From the IMG/VR virus record IMGVR_UViG_3300011113_000784, positions 32,001 to 96,000 of that record: DNA of 64,000 nt, one strand, 5' to 3'. The position numbers and the translations under genes are program-made. Positions within the stretch are counted from its first letter, which is position 1; the number at the start of each line of letters is the position of its first letter. The stretch is from a virus. A model generated the notes under the pieces. The model was not told where the DNA came from. It saw only the letters and a list, made by a program, of their open reading frames with translations, and did no database searches. Of this stretch, positions 2,414 through 32,071 are shown piece after piece.

Positions 2414-4201
2414 ATGGACATGATAACTTTGACTGAAGAAACCGAAGAAAAGGATTCTTCTTTATTTTCATATTACAAATATCCCTTTGAAAAATTCAAT
2501 GTTGTTCAAAGCACTGTCTTAGAACATTATCAAACTCCTAATAATTTTATTATCGCTTCTGCCACCAACAGTGGAAAAACTGTCATGGCAGAGTTTTTCT
2601 TGTTCGACGCTTTAACTGCAAAGAATAAAAAAGCCATTTATTTGTGTCCTCTTAAGTCTCTTGCAGCTGAAAAGCATACTGCTTGGTCAGATGAGTCTCA
2701 TCCATTCCACAAAAGCAAAATCAGACTTATGGCAGGAGATGAAGAAAAGACACATACCGGCAATCTTATTGTCGCAACTATTGAAAGTTTTTGTCACAAG
2801 GTCAGAACAGAACCAAATTGCTTTGATGATGTGGAAGTCATCATTGTAGATGAAGCCCACATGCTTGGCACTGATGATCGTGGTGCTACACTTGAGTTTG
2901 CTCTAACAGAATTTGCTAGAAAGAATAGTGCCAAGATTGTGTTCTTAAGCGGCACATTGCCAAATGCTAATCAAATAGCAGAATGGCTATCTGTCCTCAA
3001 TAAAAGAAAAACAATGGTTCTTAATTCCACATATAGGGCTGTTCCTCTCAATATTCATTATCGAAGATATGACACTTCCTTGAATCAAGGAACTAATCCT
3101 ATTGATATGTTTGATTCGATAATCAAAATTTGTGATAAGAACAGTTCAGACAAAATACTTGTTTTTGTTCATTCTAAAAATTTGGGGAAAAGGTTGGTTA
3201 AATACATTGGCGAAAGAGGCTTAGAAGCAAAGTTTCATTCCGCCGATCTTGTTGCTTCTAAAAGAAAGGCGCTTGAGAAGGAATTCAAAGAAGGCTCTCT
3301 CCGATTACTTGTTGCAACAAGCACTCTTGCTGCGGGCGTGAATCTTCCTGCCAGAAGGGTAATTATTGCTGGTGTTGTGAGAGGAAATCAATTAGTAGAA
3401 AAGTCTGAAATATTTCAGATGATTGGTCGTAGTGGCAGAAAAGGAATTGATGAACAGGGCGATGCTTATATCTTTTTTCCTGACAACAAAATCACTTTGG
3501 TAAATGAATACAAAAAGGTTGATAATGTTGTTTCAAAGTTATTTATAACAAATGATGATCTTGAATATCATAAGCTTGCTGGTCACATTCTTTCTTTAAT
3601 CTATTTAGAGAAAAAACTTAGCTTTAATAAGATATGGAATGTTTTAAACAATACATTTGGTGCTTGCTCTGGCAAGATGAAATCTGATTACTTGCAGAAC
3701 ACATTAGATCGATTAGTATCAATGAAATTCATTGAACTTATAAATGATGATTACAAGATAAGAAAGCTAGGAATTCCAAGCGTATTGTTTTTCATTGACC
3801 CCTATGACATGAATGTTTGGGTTAAAAGTTTTTCTCGTTATTTTGCTGGATCTTTGAGAAAAGACTCTTTAGTCACTTATTATCTTTCGTTGATACCATC
3901 TAATACAAAATCATTTATTACAGAAGAAGAGAAATTGTTCTGTCGTCAATATTCTGACAGGCTTCGTGAGTTGCTTGGAAACAATTTTATTGAAACTTCT
4001 GCAATAAAATATGGTTATCTTTATTATTGCCTATTAAACAATAGATCTACAGCAATGTTGTCTCCTTTGATTCCTGCTGCGGCTAAGGATTTTGGCAGGA
4101 TTTGTGCTTGTTTAAACATGCTTTCCAAGATTTGTCAATGGAAGTGCGAAAACAATTTCTTCACAGATCTTAAGGAAAGATTTCATCGCAAAAAAGTTTA
4201 A
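2414..4201 (+). CDS. Ski2/Hel308-like SF2 DEAH helicase
   Basis: ATNSGKT Walker A, DEAH, SGT, TSTLAAGVNLPA and QMIGRSGR motifs; the start may be ATG 2420. Confidence 0.9.
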   Translation: MDMITLTEETEEKDSSLFSYYKYPFEKFNVVQSTVLEHYQTPNNFIIASATNSGKTVMAEFFLFDALTAKNKKAIYLCPLKSLAAEKHTAWSDESHPFHKSKIRLMAGDEEKTHTGNLIVATIESFCHKVRTEPNCFDDVEVIIVDEAHMLGTDDRGATLEFALTEFARKNSAKIVFLSGTLPNANQIAEWLSVLNKRKTMVLNSTYRAVPLNIHYRRYDTSLNQGTNPIDMFDSIIKICDKNSSDKILVFVHSKNLGKRLVKYIGERGLEAKFHSADLVASKRKALEKEFKEGSLRLLVATSTLAAGVNLPARRVIIAGVVRGNQLVEKSEIFQMIGRSGRKGIDEQGDAYIFFPDNKITLVNEYKKVDNVVSKLFITNDDLEYHKLAGHILSLIYLEKKLSFNKIWNVLNNTFGACSGKMKSDYLQNTLDRLVSMKFIELINDDYKIRKLGIPSVLFFIDPYDMNVWVKSFSRYFAGSLRKDSLVTYYLSLIPSNTKSFITEEEKLFCRQYSDRLRELLGNNFIETSAIKYGYLYYCLLNNRSTAMLSPLIPAAAKDFGRICACLNMLSKICQWKCENNFFTDLKERFHRKKV

Positions 4202-4238
4202 TCATGCTCCTTTAGTTAAAGGCTTTTAGGAGCAATTT

Positions 4239-4862
4239 ATGTCAGCAGAAAAGTTTTACACAGGAAAATTGGTAAAGCCCAAGCTGATTAAGTTCACCCA
4301 TGAAAATTCAGAAAAAATTGCTTATAAAGTTTGTATAGAAGCAGATGAATATAATCTTTGTGTAGAAAGTGCCCGTAATATGTGGGCTAATAAGAAAAAA
4401 GGATCATATGGTAAAGGATTGGTTAATACCGAAGATGATCCCTATCGTACAGAAAGAACGGGAAAACTTGGAGAAATGGCTTTTTCTAAGATATTTCAAT
4501 TTCCTGTAGATCTCACCTATCGTGAAGGTGGAGATGACCAAGACTTTCTTTGTAATGGAAAGAAGATCAACATCAAAACCAGTACGAAGAAACCTTGGTA
4601 TGCCGCTGGCTTGGTCACTGCTGGACATTATCGAGGACAAGACTTTGTGCCTTTAGAAATCAAACATGATTATTATGTGTTTGGTTATATCGAAATGGAA
4701 GACAAAAAAGCCAACATCGCTTCAGTTGTGTTTGTTGGAGGTTGTGATAAAAACACATTAATCAATAGAGAAATTAAAAGAGCGATTAAAGGGCATCACA
4801 TGAACTATCAGATTTCTTATTCTGAATTAACAGACATTAATAAGATTTCTTTTAATCAGTAG
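4239..4862 (+). CDS. putative PD-(D/E)xK-fold nuclease
   Basis: GKLGEMAF...D.DF...INIKT pattern; AGGAG SD. Confidence 0.45.
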   Translation: MSAEKFYTGKLVKPKLIKFTHENSEKIAYKVCIEADEYNLCVESARNMWANKKKGSYGKGLVNTEDDPYRTERTGKLGEMAFSKIFQFPVDLTYREGGDDQDFLCNGKKINIKTSTKKPWYAAGLVTAGHYRGQDFVPLEIKHDYYVFGYIEMEDKKANIASVVFVGGCDKNTLINREIKRAIKGHHMNYQISYSELTDINKISFNQ

Positions 4863-5091
4863 GTTTTCCGAAAAAGTTTTCTGGATATTCCATTTTAACT
4901 ACTTTTTCGCCTTTGACTTCTTCTTCCCAAAAGCGTACCTGCTCCACAGGTACGCCTAGTTCAATATAATGACAATTGTCGTTTGCGTTAACTGGCATGT
5001 TAACATTTTTGCCTTCATATAATATGTTTACTTTGCAAGTTTTATTGTTTTTGTCGAAACAAAAACAATTTTTGCATTTTTTGTTATTCAT
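4852..5091 (-). CDS. small Cys-rich hypothetical protein
   Basis: CxxCxxF...C...C motif. Confidence 0.55.
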   Translation of the reverse strand: MNNKKCKNCFCFDKNNKTCKVNILYEGKNVNMPVNANDNCHYIELGVPVEQVRFWEEEVKGEKVVKMEYPENFFGKPTD

Positions 5092-5167
5092 GACTAGTGT
5101 AGTCTGAGTACACGCTTCTCATTTATTTATGATAGTGTGTCAAAGTAAAAAGTCAAAGGGTTTCAAC

Positions 5168-5815
5168 ATGAAGAACATCATTATTGGTTTGTTCGGACAA
5201 GCAGCTTGTGGCAAAGACACGATTGCTAACATTTTGACACCAAGGCTTTGGCAATATATTGATTATGAAAAGCCATTAGTTAGAAAAGTAGCTTTTGCAT
5301 ACAATGTCAAAAAAATATTTTGCGATTATTTCGATGTTGACATGGATTTTATTGAGCAATGGAAAAGGAATCCAGAACCACCTCCCGGTTTTTTGATGAA
5401 TGTTAGGCAATCACTTCAGATGATTGGTGATGGATTCAGAAAGATCAAAAGTTCTATATGGATTGATAAAGTGATCGACAAAGTAGCAAATGTTGTCATC
5501 ACAGATGGTCGCTATCTTAACGAAGCAAATACTATTAAACAAAAAGGTGGAATAAATATTTTAGTTAATCGCCCTTCACATAGAAATAATGACCAAAATG
5601 ATAGCGAAAAGATTATGGGAGAAGTATCGGAATATTTTACAACCAAGAATGTTTGCGGATATTTAGTTAGTGAAAAATATCCAATGTTTGATTACTGTTT
5701 GAACAATAATGGAGACATACAAGACCTTGAAAAAAAGGTTGTCAACAGCTTGATTCCTTTTATTATTAAAAAATTTGAATTAGAAGAGGTTTTACTTGTG
5801 GAAAAGGGCAAGTAA
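5168..5815 (+). CDS. deoxynucleoside monophosphate kinase (T4 gp1-like)
   Basis: IIGLFGQAACGKDT P-loop, RQSLQMIG, W.DKV and ITDGRYLNE motifs; start moved to ATG 5168. Confidence 0.85.
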   Translation: MKNIIIGLFGQAACGKDTIANILTPRLWQYIDYEKPLVRKVAFAYNVKKIFCDYFDVDMDFIEQWKRNPEPPPGFLMNVRQSLQMIGDGFRKIKSSIWIDKVIDKVANVVITDGRYLNEANTIKQKGGINILVNRPSHRNNDQNDSEKIMGEVSEYFTTKNVCGYLVSEKYPMFDYCLNNNGDIQDLEKKVVNSLIPFIIKKFELEEVLLVEKGK

Positions 5816-6439
5816 TTATTTTAACTTTTTCAAAGCGTTTTCAGTCATGACGATGAATTCCCAATTTCTTTTTTTGCAGTAGATATTTGCTGCTTTCCAT
5901 TTGGCAATGTTTTTATCCCATTTTGTTTGTGATTTAGGTTTTATTTCCCACAATTCTATTTTACCGTCAACATATTCTACTAATATATCAGGAATATAAT
6001 TGTGTGTTCCTCCATTGAAGGAATATTCTATTTGTAAGCTTTCAGCTTTGTATCTTTTTACTTTTTTGTTCTTTTCTAAATGTTTTATGAATTTAAGTTC
6101 TAAGCCGCTTCGAAAAAAGATATCGCAATGGTTTTTTTCTGAATAGAAATTTCCTTGCTTAAATTTAGTGATCTTTTTGCCAGTCTTTTTTCCTTTTTTT
6201 TTTATATCACGAATGATAAGCGCCCTTGTTTGGGTTCCGGGCGGGATGACTTCGCTTATGTGTTTGGAACGGTAATGAGCAATTAAATCTCTTGTGGGTA
6301 TTTCACAAGAAGGACAAATAACATAATCATCGCCTTCTTTATGTTCGGTGACAATATGTGCCCTGAGAAGATCTAATTGATCGTAACTTTGTTCACAAAC
6401 GAAACAACAATAGTTTCTATTTAGAATTTTTTTGTCCAT
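5816..6439 (-). CDS. TnsA-like / T4 gp4-like head-completion nuclease with two N-terminal C2H2 zinc fingers
   Basis: FRSGLE...YIPD...EIKP...N.AKW.AA...F.VMTE; CxxC-12-HxxxxH and CxxC...HxxxxH at the N-terminus. Confidence 0.75.
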   Translation of the reverse strand: MDKKILNRNYCCFVCEQSYDQLDLLRAHIVTEHKEGDDYVICPSCEIPTRDLIAHYRSKHISEVIPPGTQTRALIIRDIKKKGKKTGKKITKFKQGNFYSEKNHCDIFFRSGLELKFIKHLEKNKKVKRYKAESLQIEYSFNGGTHNYIPDILVEYVDGKIELWEIKPKSQTKWDKNIAKWKAANIYCKKRNWEFIVMTENALKKLK

Positions 6440-18395: not shown

Positions 18396-19589
18396 ATGCC
18401 TCGCCGTATTGATTCTGACCATAAAGACTTCAGAGATGTAGTCAGTGGCAGAATTAGAAAAAATCTAAAAAAGTTTATCAAGAGTGGCGAAATATTTCGC
18501 CACCGTGGTAAAAATGGCAAAGTATCAATAAAGATTCCTGCAATTGATATCCCTCACTTTCTTCACGGCAAGAACCCTAATGGGGTAGGTCGTGGAGAAG
18601 GACAAGAAGGAGATACTGTTGGCAAGGACAAGGGGCAAGGTCAAGGACAAGGAAACGGCGCTGGTCAGGATGAAAGCGAAGGCGTAATTGTTCAGCTAGA
18701 TATGGAGGACATCCTTCACTTCATGAAGGATGAATTGATGCTTCCTAATCTCAAACCTAAGCAACAAGCCAACCTTGAAGATGTAAAAATTAAGTATAAT
18801 AATATCTCTCTAGTTGGTCCAGAATCACTTAGGCATACTCGTCGCACAATGTTAACTGCGATGAAGCGCCTTTGCGGTACTGGCGAAATCAATAATTTAT
18901 ATGAAATTCCCGGCATTAAAGATAAAGTCAAAATGATCAATCCGATTAATTCGGATAAGAGATATCGTCAATATAAAGAGATTAGATTTCCTTCCAGCAA
19001 TGCTGTTGTTATTTTTGCTCGTGATGCCAGTGGATCAATGGATGATCGTAAAGTGGCAGTTGTTTCTGATATGGCTTATTGGATTGATGTTTATATTAGG
19101 AATTTCTATGAACGAGTTGAGAGGCTTTATGTTTGGCACGATGTAGCTGCCCATGAAGTTGATGCAAAAGATTTTTATCGAATCAGAAATGGTGGTGGCA
19201 CTACTTGTTCTACTGCTTTAGAATTAGTTGCCAAACAATTTGAAAACAGATTTCCTCCTAAAAATTGGAATATTTATTTCTTTTATTTCACTGATGGTGA
19301 AAATTACGATAATGACAACGATGTTTTTACGACTTTGTTAAAGAAAGAGTTTCCTCAAAATATTGTTAATCTTGTTTCTATAACTCAAATTGGTGCTTAT
19401 TCTTACAAAAACAGTGTTGCTGAGGTAGTTGAAAAAGAAATTGTTGAAGGTGGCTTAGATGATAATGTAATTGTTACAGAAATTCCATTTGATGCAATTA
19501 ACAATGAAGAAAAAAGAAATGAAGCTATATTAAAAGCAATAAAAGATATATTGGGCAACCCGTTTAAAAGCGCCAATGAGGTTTTCTAA
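18396..19589 (+). CDS. yeaH: YeaH/YhbH (DUF444) vWA-like protein
   Basis: P F.HG...GVG.G.G, L.LPNL.PK, D.RYR, DASGSM, GGGT..S, FTDGEN. Confidence 0.9.
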   Translation: MPRRIDSDHKDFRDVVSGRIRKNLKKFIKSGEIFRHRGKNGKVSIKIPAIDIPHFLHGKNPNGVGRGEGQEGDTVGKDKGQGQGQGNGAGQDESEGVIVQLDMEDILHFMKDELMLPNLKPKQQANLEDVKIKYNNISLVGPESLRHTRRTMLTAMKRLCGTGEINNLYEIPGIKDKVKMINPINSDKRYRQYKEIRFPSSNAVVIFARDASGSMDDRKVAVVSDMAYWIDVYIRNFYERVERLYVWHDVAAHEVDAKDFYRIRNGGGTTCSTALELVAKQFENRFPPKNWNIYFFYFTDGENYDNDNDVFTTLLKKEFPQNIVNLVSITQIGAYSYKNSVAEVVEKEIVEGGLDDNVIVTEIPFDAINNEEKRNEAILKAIKDILGNPFKSANEVF

Positions 19590-21184
19590 TGTCAGACAAA
19601 TTCTTATTTGGTTCGCCTGTTCTTTTCGGATCTGCTACTACTCCCGGCGTACCTATTCCTGAAGAACTCAACAAACATATTCCAACTATTTTTCAAGCTT
19701 GTAAAGATTTTGGACTAGATTTTTATCCAACAATTGTCCAGATGCTTTCTCATGACGAAATGAGTGAAGTTGCAAGTTATGGTGGATTTGCATCGAGATA
19801 TCCACATTGGAAGTTTGGTGCTGAATATGAAGAGATGCAAAGAGGTTATCTTCACGGAAATCATAGAATATATGAAATGGTGGTAAATTGTAATCCGGCT
19901 TATCTATATTGCCTGAATTCGAATACATTGCTTGACAATATTACAGTAATTGCTCATGCGCTTGGTCATGTTCATTTCTTTAAGAATAATATTCATTTTT
20001 CTAGAACAAATACAAATGCACATAACGAACTGGCAAATAACGGTTCTAATGTAAGAAAGTATATGTCTCGTTATGGTAGAGAAACTGTAACAGAATTTAT
20101 GGATCATTTGTTCCGAATTGAAACTCTTGTTGATCCAATGAATATCTGGAAAGAAAGAAAAGCTAAAGAAGTTGTCATTAGGGACAAAAAAGACTATGTA
20201 TTTCCTAAAAGGATTAAGACAAATCAAGATTATATGGAAAACTGGATTAATACTCCAGAGTTTATAGAAGCTCAAAATAAGAAAATTGAAGAACAAGAGA
20301 TCATGAGAGATCTCAATGCATTCGCTTCTCCTGAATCAGATATATTTGGATATATCAAAGACAATGCGCCATTCAAACCTTGGCAGCGTGATATTGCTGA
20401 GATTTTGTACAATGAAGCTATTTATTTTAGTCCACAAGGCAAAACCAAGGTAACTAATGAAGGTTTTGCTAGTTATTGCGATTATCATCTTATCGCTAAA
20501 CAAGGATACGCTTCTTTAGGACAAGATAATGAGGATGGGGGTATTGTTGAGTACTCTATTCATAAAGCTGGTGTATTGGGCGGCAAATATAGCATGAATC
20601 CATACAAGCTTGGATTTATGTTATTAATGGATATCGAAGAAAGATGGAACAAGGGTAGATTTGGATCAGATTATGCCAATTGCACTAATCCAATTGAAAG
20701 GGAAAATTGGGATCTTAATCTTGGACTTGGTAAGGAAAAAGTTTTTGAGGTTTGCAAGAACTACGATGATTATCAATTCATAAATGAATTTTTTACCAAG
20801 GAGTTCTGTGAAAAGAATGAGTTCTTTGAGTACAAGCGTTATCCGACTGGTGAAATAAAGTTGGAAAGCAGAGATTACAAAAAGATCAAAAGAGAGTTGT
20901 TGCGTAAGCATATTAATCGTGGTTTGCCAAATATTAAGCTTGTTGAGCCTAGATTTAAAGGCAACATGTTTTTCATGGAGCATAAGTGGCAAGGTGTAGA
21001 ACTTTATAAACCTTATGCTTACGAAGTGATGAAGTCTATTTGTTATCTTGTGAGACAACCTGTTGTATTGCAAACCAAGAATCATAATGGGGATGAAGCA
21101 TTTTATTATTGCCAAGATTTGAACGGGGATTATGCTGCGGCTGATCCTAAATCTTTAACAAGAGATCAATTGAATAAACTATGA
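19589..21184 (+). CDS. spoVR: SpoVR/YcgB family protein
   Basis: RYPHW.FG..Y, IYE.V.N..P, AHA.GH.HFFKNN, TKV.NEG.AS, NPY.LG. Confidence 0.92.
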   Translation: MSDKFLFGSPVLFGSATTPGVPIPEELNKHIPTIFQACKDFGLDFYPTIVQMLSHDEMSEVASYGGFASRYPHWKFGAEYEEMQRGYLHGNHRIYEMVVNCNPAYLYCLNSNTLLDNITVIAHALGHVHFFKNNIHFSRTNTNAHNELANNGSNVRKYMSRYGRETVTEFMDHLFRIETLVDPMNIWKERKAKEVVIRDKKDYVFPKRIKTNQDYMENWINTPEFIEAQNKKIEEQEIMRDLNAFASPESDIFGYIKDNAPFKPWQRDIAEILYNEAIYFSPQGKTKVTNEGFASYCDYHLIAKQGYASLGQDNEDGGIVEYSIHKAGVLGGKYSMNPYKLGFMLLMDIEERWNKGRFGSDYANCTNPIERENWDLNLGLGKEKVFEVCKNYDDYQFINEFFTKEFCEKNEFFEYKRYPTGEIKLESRDYKKIKRELLRKHINRGLPNIKLVEPRFKGNMFFMEHKWQGVELYKPYAYEVMKSICYLVRQPVVLQTKNHNGDEAFYYCQDLNGDYAAADPKSLTRDQLNKL

Positions 21185-22039: not shown

Positions 22040-22373
22040 TAAAAAAGAAATTAGTTATCAAGATCTCGATGAAATGGAAGAAATTATCGAAGCGTCTACG
22101 GATGGACCGTGGGAGATTTCTTCTCCAGAAGGAGAAGAATGGAGGCAACAAGCTAAAGATTTTGCTTTTATTGCAATGGCTAGAAATGAAATGCCTCGTT
22201 TAATCAAACAGTTGCGCTTGTATATGAAATGCAATGAAGAATTGCAATCATTAGATGGAATGCAACAGATGGCAATCGAAAGACTCAATAAGGAAGTTTC
22301 TCTTCTTCGTGAATCTTTGCGTGTACTTGAACAGCAACATAAATTGATGCTTGTGCAACAAGCAGGCTTGTAG
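22032..22373 (+). CDS. Ead/Ea22-like phage protein
   Basis: AST.GPW...D..FIA.AR...P.LI..LR motif followed by a coiled coil. Confidence 0.55.
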   Translation: MNNKKEISYQDLDEMEEIIEASTDGPWEISSPEGEEWRQQAKDFAFIAMARNEMPRLIKQLRLYMKCNEELQSLDGMQQMAIERLNKEVSLLRESLRVLEQQHKLMLVQQAGL

Positions 22374-22379
22374 TATAAT
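22351..22379 (+). promoter_or_regulatory. sigma70-type promoter of dnaE part A
   Basis: TTGTGC-17 nt-TATAAT. Confidence 0.6.
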
Positions 22380-22415
22380 TATCGAATACTAACCCTCTTT
22401 CTAACGGTGACGATC

Positions 22416-23800
22416 ATGGAAGAATTGAACAAGGAAGGAGGGCAGCACAAGCAGATGAAGATTGTTGGTTATGAACATCTTCATCTGCACTAGGTCAAAC
22501 AGAATACTCTGTCCTCGACGGTTTTGGTAGCGTTCAGGATTATATTGATAGGTGGTCACCGCATGGCGATTATCTCTGTGTAACAGATCATGGATTAATG
22601 GGTGCTATACCAAGCTTAATCACAAAAACAGAACAAGCAGAAAAGAAATTAAAAAGTTTGTACGGGTGCGAATTGTATGTGAACCCAATTCACAATGAAC
22701 CAACTGAGACTGAAGAAGCTAGAGACAAATTTATAAAAAACTTGTCACCACAAGAATTTGAAGATTTCAAAGTCTCTAGCCACATATTAGCAATTGCCGT
22801 AACCAATAAAGGTTATGAAAACCTAACAAAATTGTGTAGTCTTGGCTGGAGCCAAGGATTTTATCGTAAGCCTAGAGTCAATCACAAAGTTCTTCAACAA
22901 TATAAAGAAGGCATTGTTTTCACTTCTTGTTGTTGTGCTTCTGAAGCAGCAAGAGCTTTGCGTGTACATGGCAAAGAAGTTGCTGAAGCGACTATTCTTA
23001 AATACAAGCAAATGTTTGGAGATAACTTCTATCTTGAAATGATGCTTCTCGATTTTGAGTATCAACATGAGTATGATCAATTTTTAGTTGAGATGCACAT
23101 CAAACATCAAATTCCAATGATCATTACCAATGATGTTCATTACGCATATCAAGAGGATAGCAAGTATCAAACATTAATGATGTTGGTTAATACCAAAAGG
23201 ACATTGGCTGAGATTGAGAAGTTAAAAGCTGAGAATGCTGATGTGTTTGAATTGCAAGATAGAAATTTGTGGATGAAAACAGAGGAAGAATTGAATCAAA
23301 AGTGGGCTGAAAAGTATTCCGATGTAATTCCTTTAGAAATTTATGAACAAGCTAAAATGAATACTGTTAAGATATGCAGAATGGCATCTGGCTTAAAATT
23401 AGATAGAAGTGTAAAACTACCAAGGCTCAATGATGATGAAGGCGTTTTAAAAGATTTGGTTTTAAGAGGAATGACATATAGGGGAATATCAAAATCTAAT
23501 CGTATTTACACAAAGCGTATTGCAGAAGAATTAGATCTTATTTTTAGGAAACAGTTTGCTAGTTACTTTCTCATAGTTAAGAGTTTTACAGATGAAGCTA
23601 GAAGAAAGTGTCAAGAGATTACTGGGTTGGATGGCGTTTATGCGGTTGGACCCGGTAGAGGGTCTGGTGCTGGTTCTCTTGTGTTATATCTTCTTGGCGT
23701 TACTGATGTAGACCCAATAAAGCATGAACTTCTGTTCTCACGATTCTTATCGGAGAACAGAGGTTCACAAGCAGTATTAAAATTTAGTCAAGGTGACTGA
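22416..23800 (+). CDS. dnaE: DNA polymerase III alpha, N-terminal part (PHP domain and first palm segment); reading frame interrupted by 8 nt at 22491-22498
   Basis: 22416-22490 encodes ...YEHLHLH; 22499 onward encodes TEYSVLDG...TDHG..G...GCE...H...GY.NL...F..KPR...TNDVHY...GPGRGSGAGSLV.Y.LG.T.VDP....LLFSRFL. Confidence 0.88.
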
Positions 23801-24077
23801 CTTCATAGTCATCAAAGTTACTTCCTTTAGAGAAGTCAACATTTGGTGTTCCAAGATCGCCAAAAGGTTTGTCAGTATTATAACCTTTTGCACGATATGC
23901 TTGGCTCTTTTTGCCTTGTAGTGGGAAGCTATAATGCTTTCCTTTAACGCCAGTATCTTCAGGGGCTTCTGGTTGGGGGAAAGCATAAGATTTCATGATA
24001 TCTTGAAGTTTTTTCTGAGAATCGCTAATTTCTAGATCTTTTTTATATTGCTCTAAAGTCTTAATTTTCTTTGCCAT
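23784..24077 (-). CDS. hypothetical protein on the opposite strand between the dnaE halves
   Basis: GAGGTG SD with CTAAATA upstream. Confidence 0.65.
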   Translation of the reverse strand: MAKKIKTLEQYKKDLEISDSQKKLQDIMKSYAFPQPEAPEDTGVKGKHYSFPLQGKKSQAYRAKGYNTDKPFGDLGTPNVDFSKGSNFDDYEVSHLD

Positions 24078-24108
24078 GATTCACCTCTACTTTATTTAGA
24101 TTTTCACA

Positions 24109-24136
24109 TTGATTTTTACCGCTAAATGCTTAAAAT
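24109..24136 (+). promoter_or_regulatory. sigma70-type promoter of dnaE part B
   Basis: TTGATT-16 nt-TAAAAT; ATG 7 nt downstream. Confidence 0.5.
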
Positions 24137-24142
24137 CATGGT

Positions 24143-26614
24143 ATGAATACCATATCTGTCGAAGATTTTAATAAAATTATCAACAATCAATTCAAGAAAT
24201 TTCCTTTTCATGATGATCCACGATATCAATTCAGGCTTAGATATGAGCTTTTAGAAATAGAAACACAAAATTGTTGTGATTATTTTATAGATTTGGTCAA
24301 ACAAAAGAAAAAATTTCTTAATGAAAACAATTTACTTGTCCCAGTGTTACTGGGAATTTGCAATGAATTCAATATTGATGAAATGCCCAAAACTAAAACA
24401 AATGAATTCCCCGATGTTGATATCGATTTCTTGGCAGATGTTCGTGATTATCTAAAAAACGAATATGCTCCCAATCAATATAAAGCTGAAAATACATGCT
24501 CTATTGGTACTTACGGCAGATATGCTTTAAAGAGCGCCATGATTGATATGGCAAGAATCTATGGATATGACCGACAAGAAGTTTTAAATATTACAACAAA
24601 TTTGAGAATGAAAGACGAAGATGGAGATGAATTGACATATGAAGAAGCTTTAGAAATGTATCCTGAGTTGAAATCTTATATGGACAAGTATCCAGAATTA
24701 GCATTAGCTGTTCAAAAGCTTATTCACAGAGTACGCAATACCGGCAAACATGCTGGCGGTGTAATTGTTGCCAAGGACGAGATTAATAAGTTTGTTCCAT
24801 TGATGAAAACCACAGGTGGTGACCAGCTTGTATCACAGTTTGTAGAAGGTTTGGCTACACAAGAATTAGGACCAATAGGTCTGGTAAAATTCGACTTGCT
24901 TGTTGTGTCTGCGTTAGAGCAGACGGGTCACGCAGTAAAAATGATAAAGGATAGGCATAATATCAAATTAATTTCAGGTGACAATCACGATTGGGACAAC
25001 ACAGATTATTTGAATGACCCCAAGGCTATTGCGAATGCCAACGAAGCAGATTTGATTGGCATATTCCAATATGATAGCAATGGGATTAGAGAAGTTGTAA
25101 AAGCTTCTGGTATTGATAGTTTTGATGACTTGGTTGCGATTGTCAGTTTGTATCGTCCCGGTCCATTGAATGCAGAAATGGATCAAGTGTTCATCAGAAG
25201 AAAAACAGGACAAGAAGAATATACAATCAATCCCGTGCTTGAACCTGTTCTTAAATCAACTTATGGAATTATTATCTACCAAGAACAAGTAATGAGGATT
25301 CTGAATGTTGTTGGCAAAATCCCTCTGAAAGATTGCGAAACAATCAGAAAGGCTATTTCTAAAAAGAAGATATCAAGTTTCATCAAGTATAAAGAACAAT
25401 TCATTGAAAACGGTGTTAATGTTCTTGGAATTTCCAGAGAAGAAGTCGCTGATATATTTCAGAATATTGAATTCTTCTCAGCTTATGGTTTTAACTTAAG
25501 TCATGCCACCGCTTATACTTACATCAGCAGCCGACAATTATATTTGAAAACTTATTATCCATTAGAATTCTTTACTGCTTTGTTGATGTTGGAAGGTAGT
25601 GAAGAGAAGAAGCGCATTTATATTACAGATGCTCAAAATCATGGAATTGAAGTTCGGGCAGTTGACCTAAACACAAGCAAAGCCAATTTCTCGATACAAG
25701 ATAATGCCATTTACATTGGTTTTGGCAATATTAAAGGTATCGGAATGGATACTGCCAATAAGATTGTAGCCTTGCAACCGTTTAAAGACATAGATGATTT
25801 TCTTCGTCGGTTTGGCACAGACTCTAGTGTTTTGAAAGCACTGATTCCGTTGAAGGTCTTTGGAGAAGACACAAAGAGAGCTTACAACTATTGGCAAGCT
25901 TTTATGGCTAAGAACAAAAAGGTTGTTGACAAAAATAAGAGATCTAATAAGTCTTATCTCGATCTGAAGAAGACAGTGTTATATCTGTTGCCTGAAAAGT
26001 ATAGGAATTTGGAATTGTCTGAAGAATTGTTTTCAATTCTTAAATCAATTAATGATTCTGCTGATGTGAACAAGCTGCATAAGAAATGGGTGAGGATGAA
26101 TTCTAAAGAAGAAGCAAAGATTGAAATTTCTTATGAAGACTTTGATGATGATGACATTGTCATCGAAGATAAAGAGTTGCTGCTTGAATTAAATGATATT
26201 TGTGTGGCTGAGAGAAAGTATTATGGGTTTCAGTTTACTTGCAGACTAAGAATGCTAAAGATGTACAGTGAGAACTGTACATTTGACCGTGTTATTAATT
26301 CTCATGCCTTGGGTGCGACTAAGCACATGGTTCAAATTGAAATATTGGATGTCAATAAAAGATATTCAAAATCTGGTAAGCCCTATTGCCAGTTAGTTGC
26401 TATGGATAGTAATTTCAGAATTGAGAGGATTAATGTGTGGGAAGATGATTACGCTATATTCAAACATTTGCTTGAGGTTAACAAATGTTTGTCAATGCAG
26501 GTCAAACCACCTTCTAATGGATTTTCTACTTATAGCCTAAATTCTCCTCCTAAAAACAGGAGATATTTACTTCCATCATCAGAGATGGATTTCAGAATTG
26601 TTTTAATGGACTAG
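24143..26614 (+). CDS. dnaE: DNA polymerase III alpha, C-terminal part (catalytic palm, thumb, fingers, HhH, OB)
   Basis: PDVDIDF, GKHAGG, GLVKFDLL, GIFQ, LYRPGP, TYGIIIYQEQVM, YGFNLSHATAY, IKGIG. Confidence 0.93.
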   Translation: MNTISVEDFNKIINNQFKKFPFHDDPRYQFRLRYELLEIETQNCCDYFIDLVKQKKKFLNENNLLVPVLLGICNEFNIDEMPKTKTNEFPDVDIDFLADVRDYLKNEYAPNQYKAENTCSIGTYGRYALKSAMIDMARIYGYDRQEVLNITTNLRMKDEDGDELTYEEALEMYPELKSYMDKYPELALAVQKLIHRVRNTGKHAGGVIVAKDEINKFVPLMKTTGGDQLVSQFVEGLATQELGPIGLVKFDLLVVSALEQTGHAVKMIKDRHNIKLISGDNHDWDNTDYLNDPKAIANANEADLIGIFQYDSNGIREVVKASGIDSFDDLVAIVSLYRPGPLNAEMDQVFIRRKTGQEEYTINPVLEPVLKSTYGIIIYQEQVMRILNVVGKIPLKDCETIRKAISKKKISSFIKYKEQFIENGVNVLGISREEVADIFQNIEFFSAYGFNLSHATAYTYISSRQLYLKTYYPLEFFTALLMLEGSEEKKRIYITDAQNHGIEVRAVDLNTSKANFSIQDNAIYIGFGNIKGIGMDTANKIVALQPFKDIDDFLRRFGTDSSVLKALIPLKVFGEDTKRAYNYWQAFMAKNKKVVDKNKRSNKSYLDLKKTVLYLLPEKYRNLELSEELFSILKSINDSADVNKLHKKWVRMNSKEEAKIEISYEDFDDDDIVIEDKELLLELNDICVAERKYYGFQFTCRLRMLKMYSENCTFDRVINSHALGATKHMVQIEILDVNKRYSKSGKPYCQLVAMDSNFRIERINVWEDDYAIFKHLLEVNKCLSMQVKPPSNGFSTYSLNSPPKNRRYLLPSSEMDFRIVLMD

Positions 26615-26622
26615 TTTAATTC

Positions 26623-27060
26623 ATGGAAGATGACATTATAATTGATGATAGCAATTTTCATAAGTATTTTCGTAATACCAGAAATAGCAAAAAGCAAAAA
26701 AATGACATCGTTGTTATGTTCTATACTTCAGCTGTTTTTGCAACTGGGAAATTAAAGGAAGAAATTGTTGATTTGTTGGCAACAGAATTTAGCAGTGTGA
26801 ACAAATGCTTAGGCAAGTTGTTTAAATTTGCTTATGCGCCACATGTAGAAGGCATGAAAATTTGTAAAAGTATAATAAAAGATTATATCGATGGCATGTC
26901 TAAGGATGATATAATAAATAAAGAATATCCTTTTGTATTGCAGATGTTTTTTTACACGAAGGAGAAATATATTCCTAGGAATGATAGGCGTTGGTTGGTG
27001 GTTCCAGATGAATTCAGAAAAAATAATACGAATTTTGCTGCCCTACAAAGAAAAGACTAA
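26623..27060 (+). CDS. hypothetical protein
   Basis: 145-aa ORF. Confidence 0.6.
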   Translation: MEDDIIIDDSNFHKYFRNTRNSKKQKNDIVVMFYTSAVFATGKLKEEIVDLLATEFSSVNKCLGKLFKFAYAPHVEGMKICKSIIKDYIDGMSKDDIINKEYPFVLQMFFYTKEKYIPRNDRRWLVVPDEFRKNNTNFAALQRKD

Positions 27061-31657: not shown

Positions 31658-32071
31658 ATGATGCACAGTCTCAAAAATGTGATGGTTATTGATTGCCAAG
31701 ATGATGTGGAATTCTATGCCGAAGGCAATTATTTAGAAGAAATGTTTGACAAAGTTTTTTTAAATTTAAACGATAGCGATGGAATTCCATTAAAAGGAAG
31801 AGCAAAATATAAAAATAATTTCAATGATATTCTTGAAAAGTGTAATATAGAAAATTCTATAGATTTGGTTTACAAACTTTTAAACAAACATGTTTCCAAG
31901 CAAGATGATGGATATTATGTGGATAATGATGAATCGGTTCCTTCTCCTGATGTATTAAAAGTTCTTGAATTTTTAAGTCATTTGCATGACAAGAAGATTC
32001 CTAAAAGATTTGTGGGTGGTTTTTTGATTCTTATGGTCAAATTTGTTTATTTTCCTTTAATTAATGTGTAA
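31658..32071 (+). CDS. hypothetical protein
   Basis: 137-aa ORF, GAGG SD. Confidence 0.6.
   Translation: MMHSLKNVMVIDCQDDVEFYAEGNYLEEMFDKVFLNLNDSDGIPLKGRAKYKNNFNDILEKCNIENSIDLVYKLLNKHVSKQDDGYYVDNDESVPSPDVLKVLEFLSHLHDKKIPKRFVGGFLILMVKFVYFPLINV

Follow-up and report, generated by a model that had tools for sequence, protein, structure and literature searches.

Very few natural systems of programmed bypassing are known, namely the T4 gene 60 family, the mitochondria of Magnusiomyces and, as a candidate, the PhiHau3 terminase. As reviewed by Manning & Atkins and treated by Wills et al., T4 gene 60 contains a 50-nt bypass inside a MobA HNH homing-endonuclease element, and a role has been proposed for a 5' stem-loop together with pairing of the mRNA on the exit side of the ribosome (10.1101/2022.08.31.505936; 10.1101/2024.12.09.627546). 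In the PhiHau3 terminase (g6/g7/g8), non-coding blocks of 10 nt, or 7 nt in a prophage, follow a rare UUA codon, and the junction peptide was found by mass spectrometry in Escherichia coli (Antonov et al., 2023; PMC10732093). The Manning & Atkins review also describes mitochondrial 'byp' inserts of 27-55 nt in Magnusiomyces capitatus, and synthetic 'stop-hops' of low efficiency in E. coli, over a slow codon or a stop, with 9 nt standing for one residue (10.1101/2022.08.31.505936). Similar bypassing was described as unreported in other phages (Manning & Atkins, 2022; 10.1101/2022.08.31.505936), and our literature search found no publications on gaps in dnaE. Here we describe an 8-nt gap, opened by a stop codon, within the PHP motif of a viral dnaE gene located in a stretch of 64,000 nt (hereafter the window, whose coordinates are used throughout; positions 32,001 to 96,000 of IMG/VR virus record IMGVR_UViG_3300011113_000784), which ribosomes probably hop over. 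Among the known systems, the PhiHau3 terminase is the closest by gap size and T4 mobA/gene 60 the closest by logic; the dnaE locus resembles the gene 60 family in that logic but is not a member of it, as indicated by the gene concerned, the missing take-off stem-loop and the only near-cognate codons; no sequence homology to the gene 60 cassette was seen, no comparison aimed at it having been made.

The upstream frame, which reads ...MKIVGYEHLHLH over 25 codons from ATG 22416, is closed by the TAG that opens the gap; a second in-frame ATG is present at 22455, behind the Shine-Dalgarno-like (SD-like) sequence listed in Table 1. The post-gap frame, -1/+2 relative to the upstream one, opens at ACA 22499 as TEYSVLDGFGSVQDYIDRWSPHGDYLCVTDHGLMG... 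(TEYSVLDG...CVTDHGLMG in translation) and is shut upstream by TGA 22472. Its first ATG, GTG or TTG is the ATG at 22598, ahead of which no SD sequence is found, and the 33 start-less codons between the gap and this position carry PHP motifs I and II. A preliminary description of this stretch, made from its letters and open reading frames (ORFs), was exact in its account of the 25-codon ORF, the TAG, the 8-nt offset, the TGA and the absence of a start before 22598. It had also placed a sigma70 promoter upstream, of which the -10 element holds, with a perfect TATAAT at 22374-22379, but the -35 element (TTGTGC) matches at only 3/6 positions, and the consensus scan did not include this promoter. 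Three elements treated below escaped it: a 12-bp hairpin 5' of the take-off codon, the probable endonuclease-linked mobile origin, and a second dnaE split at 23800/24143.

The assignment to dnaE follows from domain content. The ORF that continues after the gap on the plus strand contains Pfam PHP (PF02811, at 5.9e-28) and the first 100 or so positions (3-100) of the DNA_pol3_alpha palm, and the next dnaE ORF contains the remaining palm (positions 98-259), fingers and HhH, so that the DnaE order of PHP, pol3 alpha palm, finger and HhH (PF02811, PF07733, PF17657, PF14579) is found across two ORFs. A single dnaE was found in the 111-kb record. The window is part of this 110,967-bp IMG/VR record, whose CheckV completeness is 23%, and the phage is therefore probably giant. 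Megablast of 22300-26700 against GenBank phages gave no match; at the protein level an uncultured 595-kb phage comes closest, with 48% identity, and there is no cultured relative. The G+C content of the window is 34% and code 11 fits, with 50.7 of the 64 kb in ORFs of at least 150 aa. TAG is the rarest stop in its long ORFs (TAA 29, TGA 11, TAG 5; n=45). Stop-codon reassignment or a suppressor tRNA is not indicated, as code 11 fits and no tRNA gene was found in the window. Read-through of the TAG, moreover, cannot restore the frame, a point on which we agree with the preliminary description.

That description had advised confirming the 8 nt in reads and looking for the gap in relatives, and both comparisons turned out in its favour. 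The interval 22250-22750 is covered without an indel by Logan contigs from four sequencing runs, each belonging to a different study (river 2019; an unspecified study of 2025; a virome of 2018; aquaculture 2022), and some of these, though not all four, may be the source sample. Three of the contigs are identical (depth 18, 26 and 53) and the fourth corresponds to a variant strain with 6 substitutions. The 8 nt are thus not an assembly error, and the same interruption at the same codon boundary in 13 other contigs is more than chance. An error of sequencing or assembly, or a gene that died recently, might be thought of for a source that is a single metagenomic contig, but the probability is negligible: with four independent studies free of indels and the device present in 13 diverged relatives, we count it as already refuted. 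Ten additional runs (X11-X20, from river, estuary, lake, reservoir, sediment and wastewater) hold about one tenth of the sampled words of 22250-22750, and these partial matches may represent the conserved cassette block in other phages.

Relatives were collected by scanning IMG/VR and JGI metagenomes with the post-gap protein, which gave about 70 related loci. Thirteen of the 50 metagenomic loci with a covered N-terminus were interrupted at, or a few codons from, the same place, and scans with DNA patterns added six further interrupted loci. The type present in the window, which we call class A, comprises the window, L017 (on the same contig as L002), L019-L022, L024, L044, L074-L078 and L088, the 13 contigs beyond the window showing 50-88% protein identity. 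All share an architecture in which an upstream in-frame ATG, 8-14 codons before an ATG or GTG, is followed in turn by AAGGAGG (SD-like), a hairpin of 12 bp, CAY, a stop and a gap of a few nt. This ATG or GTG, which is the ancestral start codon, lies within the 5' arm, and 2 nt separate the end of the 3' arm from the stop. The 8-nt gaps consist of TAG plus GTCAA, CTGAC, TTAAC, TTGAC, GTCAT, CTAAC, TTCTT or CCGTC, with the stop constant in the alignment and the remaining five bases variable; shorter gaps are found in L074 (TAG+CTT, 6 nt) and L088 (TGA+AT, 5 nt). A sister type, L052, has a different start-embedding hairpin, of 10 bp, followed by CAT, TAA and a 7-nt gap. In all short-gap relatives a stop (TAG, TGA or TAA) directly follows the take-off codon. 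The HLHLH before the gap is intact in all loci, the canonical motif reappears in each interrupted case when precisely the gap is taken out, and the downstream ORF is intact, with 431-457 codons, in every interrupted locus that reaches a stop (in L077 it is open for 267 codons to the end of the locus). The 18-mer of the 3' arm was found in seven dnaE N-termini in IMG/VR, with a stop and gap following in 7/7; the same search gave 27 unrelated chance matches. The truncated gene calls P0006, P0007 and P0009 are likely further interrupted cases.

The variability of the gap allows its last triplet to be compared with the take-off codon. Among the 11 distinct versions, this triplet is CAA, GAC, AAC, GAC, CAT, AAC, CTT, GTC, CTT, AAT or TAT, and in 10 of them it matches CAY at two or more of its three positions (chance 0.25 each; binomial 8e-6, uncorrected for relatedness). 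A fully cognate pair, CAT/CAT, occurs only in L024. Gaps of 5 (L088), 6 (L074), 7 (L052) and 8 nt together cover all three frames, which fits a frame-independent hop and cannot be explained by any one kind of frameshift. The hop from CAC to CAA with resumption at ACA, as suggested in the preliminary description, is therefore supported comparatively by the invariable CAY plus stop, by the near-cognate landing triplets and by the occurrence of gaps in every frame.

These data also bear on a -1 (or +2) frameshift at or just before the stop, with the gap being translated to give HLHLH-LGQ-TEYS or HLHLH-GQ-TEYS, that is, with 2-3 extra residues. The downstream frame is indeed -1/+2 and open from 22475, a stop in the A site is a classic stimulator of frameshifting, and one clade of uninterrupted relatives tolerates a single extra residue after HxH-T. 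However, ACATCTTCATCTGCAC (22475-22493) lacks a slippery heptamer (X XXY YYZ), no conserved structure lies 3' of it, and tRNA-His cannot re-pair at GCA or CUA. As residues the gap triplets are not conserved (LGQ, LAD, LVN, LVD, LGH, LAN, LVL, LAV), and no multi-residue insert between HxH and YS-x-LDG, such as the 2-3 residues predicted here, was found in uninterrupted relatives. Furthermore, the same cassette has in L074 a 6-nt in-frame gap, where the -1 frame runs into TAG, and L052 would need +1. We consider a frameshift improbable.

Constraint at the RNA level is apparent immediately upstream of the gap. The minimum free energy of the 60 nt before the stop ranges from -20.4 to -23.3 kcal/mol in class A, versus a median of -8 in 36 uninterrupted relatives, one of them at -20 (Mann-Whitney p=3e-7). 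The 12 pairs of the hairpin are formed in 100% of the 11 distinct sequences, with one pair changing to G-U and another being compensatory, AU in five sequences and GC in six (corresponding to ATG/CAT versus GTG/CAC); since the latter probably reflects a single event, the support from covariation is modest. Synonymous differences in the 11 pre-gap codons amount to 0-2 per 7 sites within subgroups and 4 across subgroups, compared with 12-19 per 20 sites beyond the gap for those within-subgroup pairs. Variation is found in the leader upstream of the hairpin, in the gap and in the codons that follow the gap, and in uninterrupted relatives the pre-gap codons vary freely. That this block is almost frozen while its flanks vary points to a constraint on the RNA itself. 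Single-sequence folds showed the SD-like leader pairing at long range with post-gap sequence, which the alignment fold did not support.

The strong hairpin abutting the site could also be invoked for removal of the 8 nt from the mRNA before translation, either as a micro-intron or through editing by an endonuclease plus a ligase. We know of no splicing system in bacteria or phages that removes segments of 5-8 nt, the gaps have no conserved boundary besides the stop, and a stop opening every gap suits a translational signal and not a splice signal, all of which makes excision of this kind very improbable.

The main rival is the absence of any joining, with the gap being a tolerated scar of a selfish element, so that the locus would produce a leader peptide of 12-25 residues and a DnaE starting at Met 22598 without PHP motifs I-II, or the phage would rely on another polymerase. 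The ATG at 22598 exists and gene callers take such internal starts (P0006, P0007, P0009); with 23% of the genome in hand, another polymerase is possible, and there are bacterial DnaE proteins whose PHP domain has no catalytic activity. Selection on the 33 start-less codons speaks against this, since between sisters sharing the cassette they show 16 synonymous differences and 2 changed residues (L044 vs L078) or 18 and 0 (L075 vs L077). Saturated synonymous change with few replacements indicates purifying selection on these 33 codons, and hence that they are translated in the post-gap frame. The conservation of HLHLH in all loci, the full ORF in all interrupted loci reaching a stop, the lack of an SD sequence before 22598 and the single dnaE of the 111-kb record also disagree with this explanation, which we regard as unlikely.

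The distribution of the interruption indicates mobility. On a quick maximum-likelihood tree of the N-part (IQ-TREE, with SH-aLRT support), class A is patchy, requiring at least six gains or losses. The nearest relatives of the window, L015 and L016 (93% identical), are uninterrupted, and L017, with the gap, is sister to L015, without it. By BLASTN and MAFFT, homology of the window to L015/L016 ends near 22298-22358 and returns at 22455, and the 8 nt are a clean insertion. A close comparison is provided by L019, which has the gap, and L023/L018, which do not, some 0.005 substitutions per site separating them. Downstream of the gap, L019 and L023 do not differ over more than 40 nt; what distinguishes L019 is the 8 nt, inserted cleanly, a 5' coding stretch that has been replaced and, 5' of the gap, an insert of 1.2 kb. 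The protein of 391 aa encoded by this insert has Zn-ribbon repeats and an HNH motif at its C-terminus and is assigned to PHROG 559 'HNH endonuclease' at 3e-22, with nothing in Pfam at E<=0.01. Homologous nucleases (44-53% identity, E 1e-86 to 7e-101) adjoin the 7-nt type in L052 and a 42-nt type in L028 and L065; L047, the sister of L052, has neither nuclease nor gap. By PHROG assignment (phrog_559/681), an HNH nuclease adjoins the cassette, directly upstream, in L019, L052, L028 and L065, and not in the window. No nuclease homologue was found in the 111-kb record, which shows little, as the record is about 23% of the genome.

Two further designs occur at this site. In class B (L028, L037, L065 and L059, at about 2455-2500 of each locus) an in-frame insert of 42 nt follows HLHLHTD and forms a GC hairpin of 11-12 bp, GCCCCCGGCAT / ATGCCGGGGGC, whose loop contains TAA; three of the four loci have an HNH nuclease next to the insert. 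Possible take-off and landing pairs are GAC>AAC, ACA>AAA or a matched GCA>GCA, which would add 7 residues. Class C is represented by L042 (2450-2500), where a 46-nt insert starting with TAG follows ...TDYSLL, its sister L043 being uninterrupted; here the take-off CUC plus UAG forms the 5' side of a stem (CUCUAG/CUAGAG) beneath a 10-bp helix, resembling the take-off stem-loop of gene 60.

Taking this evidence together, the comparison of sequences leads us to consider it probable that ribosomes bypass the 8-nt gap by means of a small mobile cassette for recoding that occupies the 5' end of the split dnaE. Translation would start at ATG 22416 (or 22455), and the ribosome would melt the 12-bp hairpin. 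With CAC 22488 in the P site and UAG in the A site, slow termination at UAG would allow peptidyl-tRNA-His to leave CAC, land on the last gap triplet (CAA 22496-22498) and resume at ACA 22499, giving a joined product with the canonical PHP motif HLHLH-TEYSVLDG, whose junction tryptic peptide would begin IVGYEHLHLHTEYSVLDG. We infer that the slide would be aided by re-zipping of the hairpin while its 3' arm emerges from the mRNA exit channel: from general ribosome knowledge, with CAC in the P site the 3' arm would be at about -10 to +1 in the exit path and the 5' arm and loop outside, so that 8 nt of travel would allow about 6-7 pairs. The cassette probably originated and spreads with a free-standing HNH homing endonuclease inserting directly upstream of dnaE, and the gap perhaps destroys the nuclease target, as in T4 mobA/gene 60; the window has kept the cassette and not the nuclease. 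That the hop gates synthesis of the PHP subunit, as the preliminary description proposed, is speculation. The more specific picture of a minimal bypass, in which a re-zipping hairpin drives a fixed slide of 5-8 nt with near-cognate re-pairing, and an HNH element has repeatedly invaded the dnaE PHP motif of giant aquatic phages, the window showing one of several gap designs (5-8, 42 and 46 nt) at one site, is put forward tentatively, our confidence in it being somewhat short of even. The probability left after bypassing and the four rivals considered above corresponds to mechanisms that we have not thought of.

Several observations weigh against bypassing or against parts of this mechanism. Take-off and landing codons are unmatched in the window (CAC/CAA), and the landing triplet of L076, GTC, matches at one position of three. 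In L017 a cognate CAC is present 2 nt past the predicted landing triplet, out of frame; scanning for the best match cannot therefore be the rule and distance must matter, so that the landing point seems to be set by distance rather than by best match. RNAalifold gave no conserved structure 3' of the gap and stop, and no conserved SD-like element was found near the landing site. As the hairpin hides ATG 22455, it could regulate initiation instead, or it could stabilise the nuclease mRNA. A short insertion at HxH-T might be viable, given the clade with one extra residue. Since the cassette is mobile, part of its similarity among loci may reflect recent transfer rather than selection. Regarding the nuclease, most class A loci, the window included, have none adjacent, and the association between nuclease and gap is loose (Fisher p=0.07). 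A same-family HNH nuclease lies directly upstream of an uninterrupted dnaE in L031 (338-1660), where the site reads HLHCH-SHYS, and in L060 (about 1482-2453), so that the gap is not the sole state compatible with the nuclease.

Table 1. Features of the interrupted dnaE locus (window coordinates)
Feature	Coordinates	Strand	Remarks
Cassette block (leader, hairpin, gap)	22359..22498	+	No counterpart in the uninterrupted 93%-identical sisters (BLASTN and MAFFT vs L015/L016)
In-frame upstream ATG, candidate true start	22416..22418	+	Would give a 25-residue nascent chain at take-off; in-frame ATG in 14/14 class A contigs
Shine-Dalgarno-like AAGGAAGGAGGG in leader	22431..22442	+	AAGGAGG/AAAGGAG kept in all class A loci; may serve ATG 22455
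12-bp hairpin	22451..22488	+	5' arm GCAGATGAAGAT 22451-22462 (holds ATG 22455), 14-nt loop, 3' arm ATCTTCATCTGC 22477-22488
Candidate take-off codon CAC	22488..22490	+	Encodes the final His of PHP motif I; class A loci all have CAC or CAT here
8-nt coding gap TAGGTCAA	22491..22498	+	Stop TAG 22491-22493; proposed landing triplet CAA 22496-22498
dnaE N-part after gap	22499..23800	+	433 codons + stop; PHP and first part of pol III alpha palm; first conventional start 22598
dnaE C-part	24143..26614	+	Separate ORF, 823 aa; PDVDIDF catalytic motif, fingers, HhH (Pfam and translation)

The likeness to T4 gene 60 extends to several levels. In both cases a stop is located right after the take-off codon, the gap lies in a conserved motif, the gene being an essential one for replication that is itself divided into two parts, and a 5' stem-loop able to re-form behind the ribosome is present, here the conserved and covarying hairpin at 22451-22488. 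A free-standing HNH homing endonuclease is adjacent in some relatives, and the distribution is patchy, of the 'hit-and-run' type. However, the gap is 8 nt here (5-8 in the family) and 50 nt in gene 60, the codons are near-cognate CAC/CAA instead of matched GGA/GGA, and no SD-like element precedes the landing site. The window also lacks a take-off (A-site) stem-loop, for which an 8-nt gap is too short, although one is present in the class C relative L042. The gene is dnaE and not that of the topoisomerase II large subunit, the nuclease is found upstream of the gene instead of inside it, and the hairpin embeds the ancestral start codon.

With the PhiHau3 terminase the locus shares a short frame-shifting gap in a conserved phage gene, a slow A-site codon after take-off, a 5' stem-loop (proposed there as a stimulator) and a conserved protein junction favouring bypass over frameshift. 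It differs in that the slow codon in PhiHau3 is a sense codon, linked to the availability of host tRNA and given a regulatory interpretation, and here it is a stop; gene and host are different, no link to a homing endonuclease was reported there, and the support comes from mass spectrometry in that case and from sequence comparison in ours. The byp inserts of Magnusiomyces are likewise mobile, have been inserted many times independently and are tolerated through bypassing, but belong to a eukaryotic organelle, are longer and GC-cluster-like, and affect many genes; the GC hairpins of classes B and C (42 and 46 nt) are closer to them than the 8-nt gap of the window. The synthetic stop-hops of E. 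coli are also short hops of peptidyl-tRNA over a stop to a nearby similar codon, but they are unprogrammed and need matched codons, whereas a conserved hairpin and leader in natural essential genes are found here. Synthetic stop-hops have efficiencies of around one percent.

The second split of dnaE separates the two ORFs just before the catalytic PDVDIDF motif. Between the halves of the window there is a minus-strand ORF of 97 aa (23784-24077) without a family match, and the C-part has an N-terminal extension of 85 residues. The two-ORF split is family-wide, with N-parts ending in ...SENRGSQAVLKFS; the distant relatives L009, L010, L060 and L063 have fused genes. L002 carries an additional minus-strand ORF of 550 aa between the halves (region 4289-6231), and in L023 a tandem array of units of about 83 nt lies there (3989-4747); a copy at 3874-3975 of L019 has at least seven matching places in L023. 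An intein domain was detected in one relative (P0120), and no intein motifs were seen in the dnaE halves of the window. Just upstream of the dnaE region, 19589-21184 encodes a SpoVR-like protein (Pfam 1e-96), an unusual cargo for a phage; such a protein is similarly placed in L059.

If bypassing is confirmed at this locus, a natural family of cassettes of about 80 nt in an essential gene would become available as a test bed for codon release, slide distance and the strictness of landing, and the link between homing endonucleases and coding gaps would have been repeated independently. For annotation, the consequence is that 'truncated' dnaE calls in the genomes of huge phages are probably whole genes.

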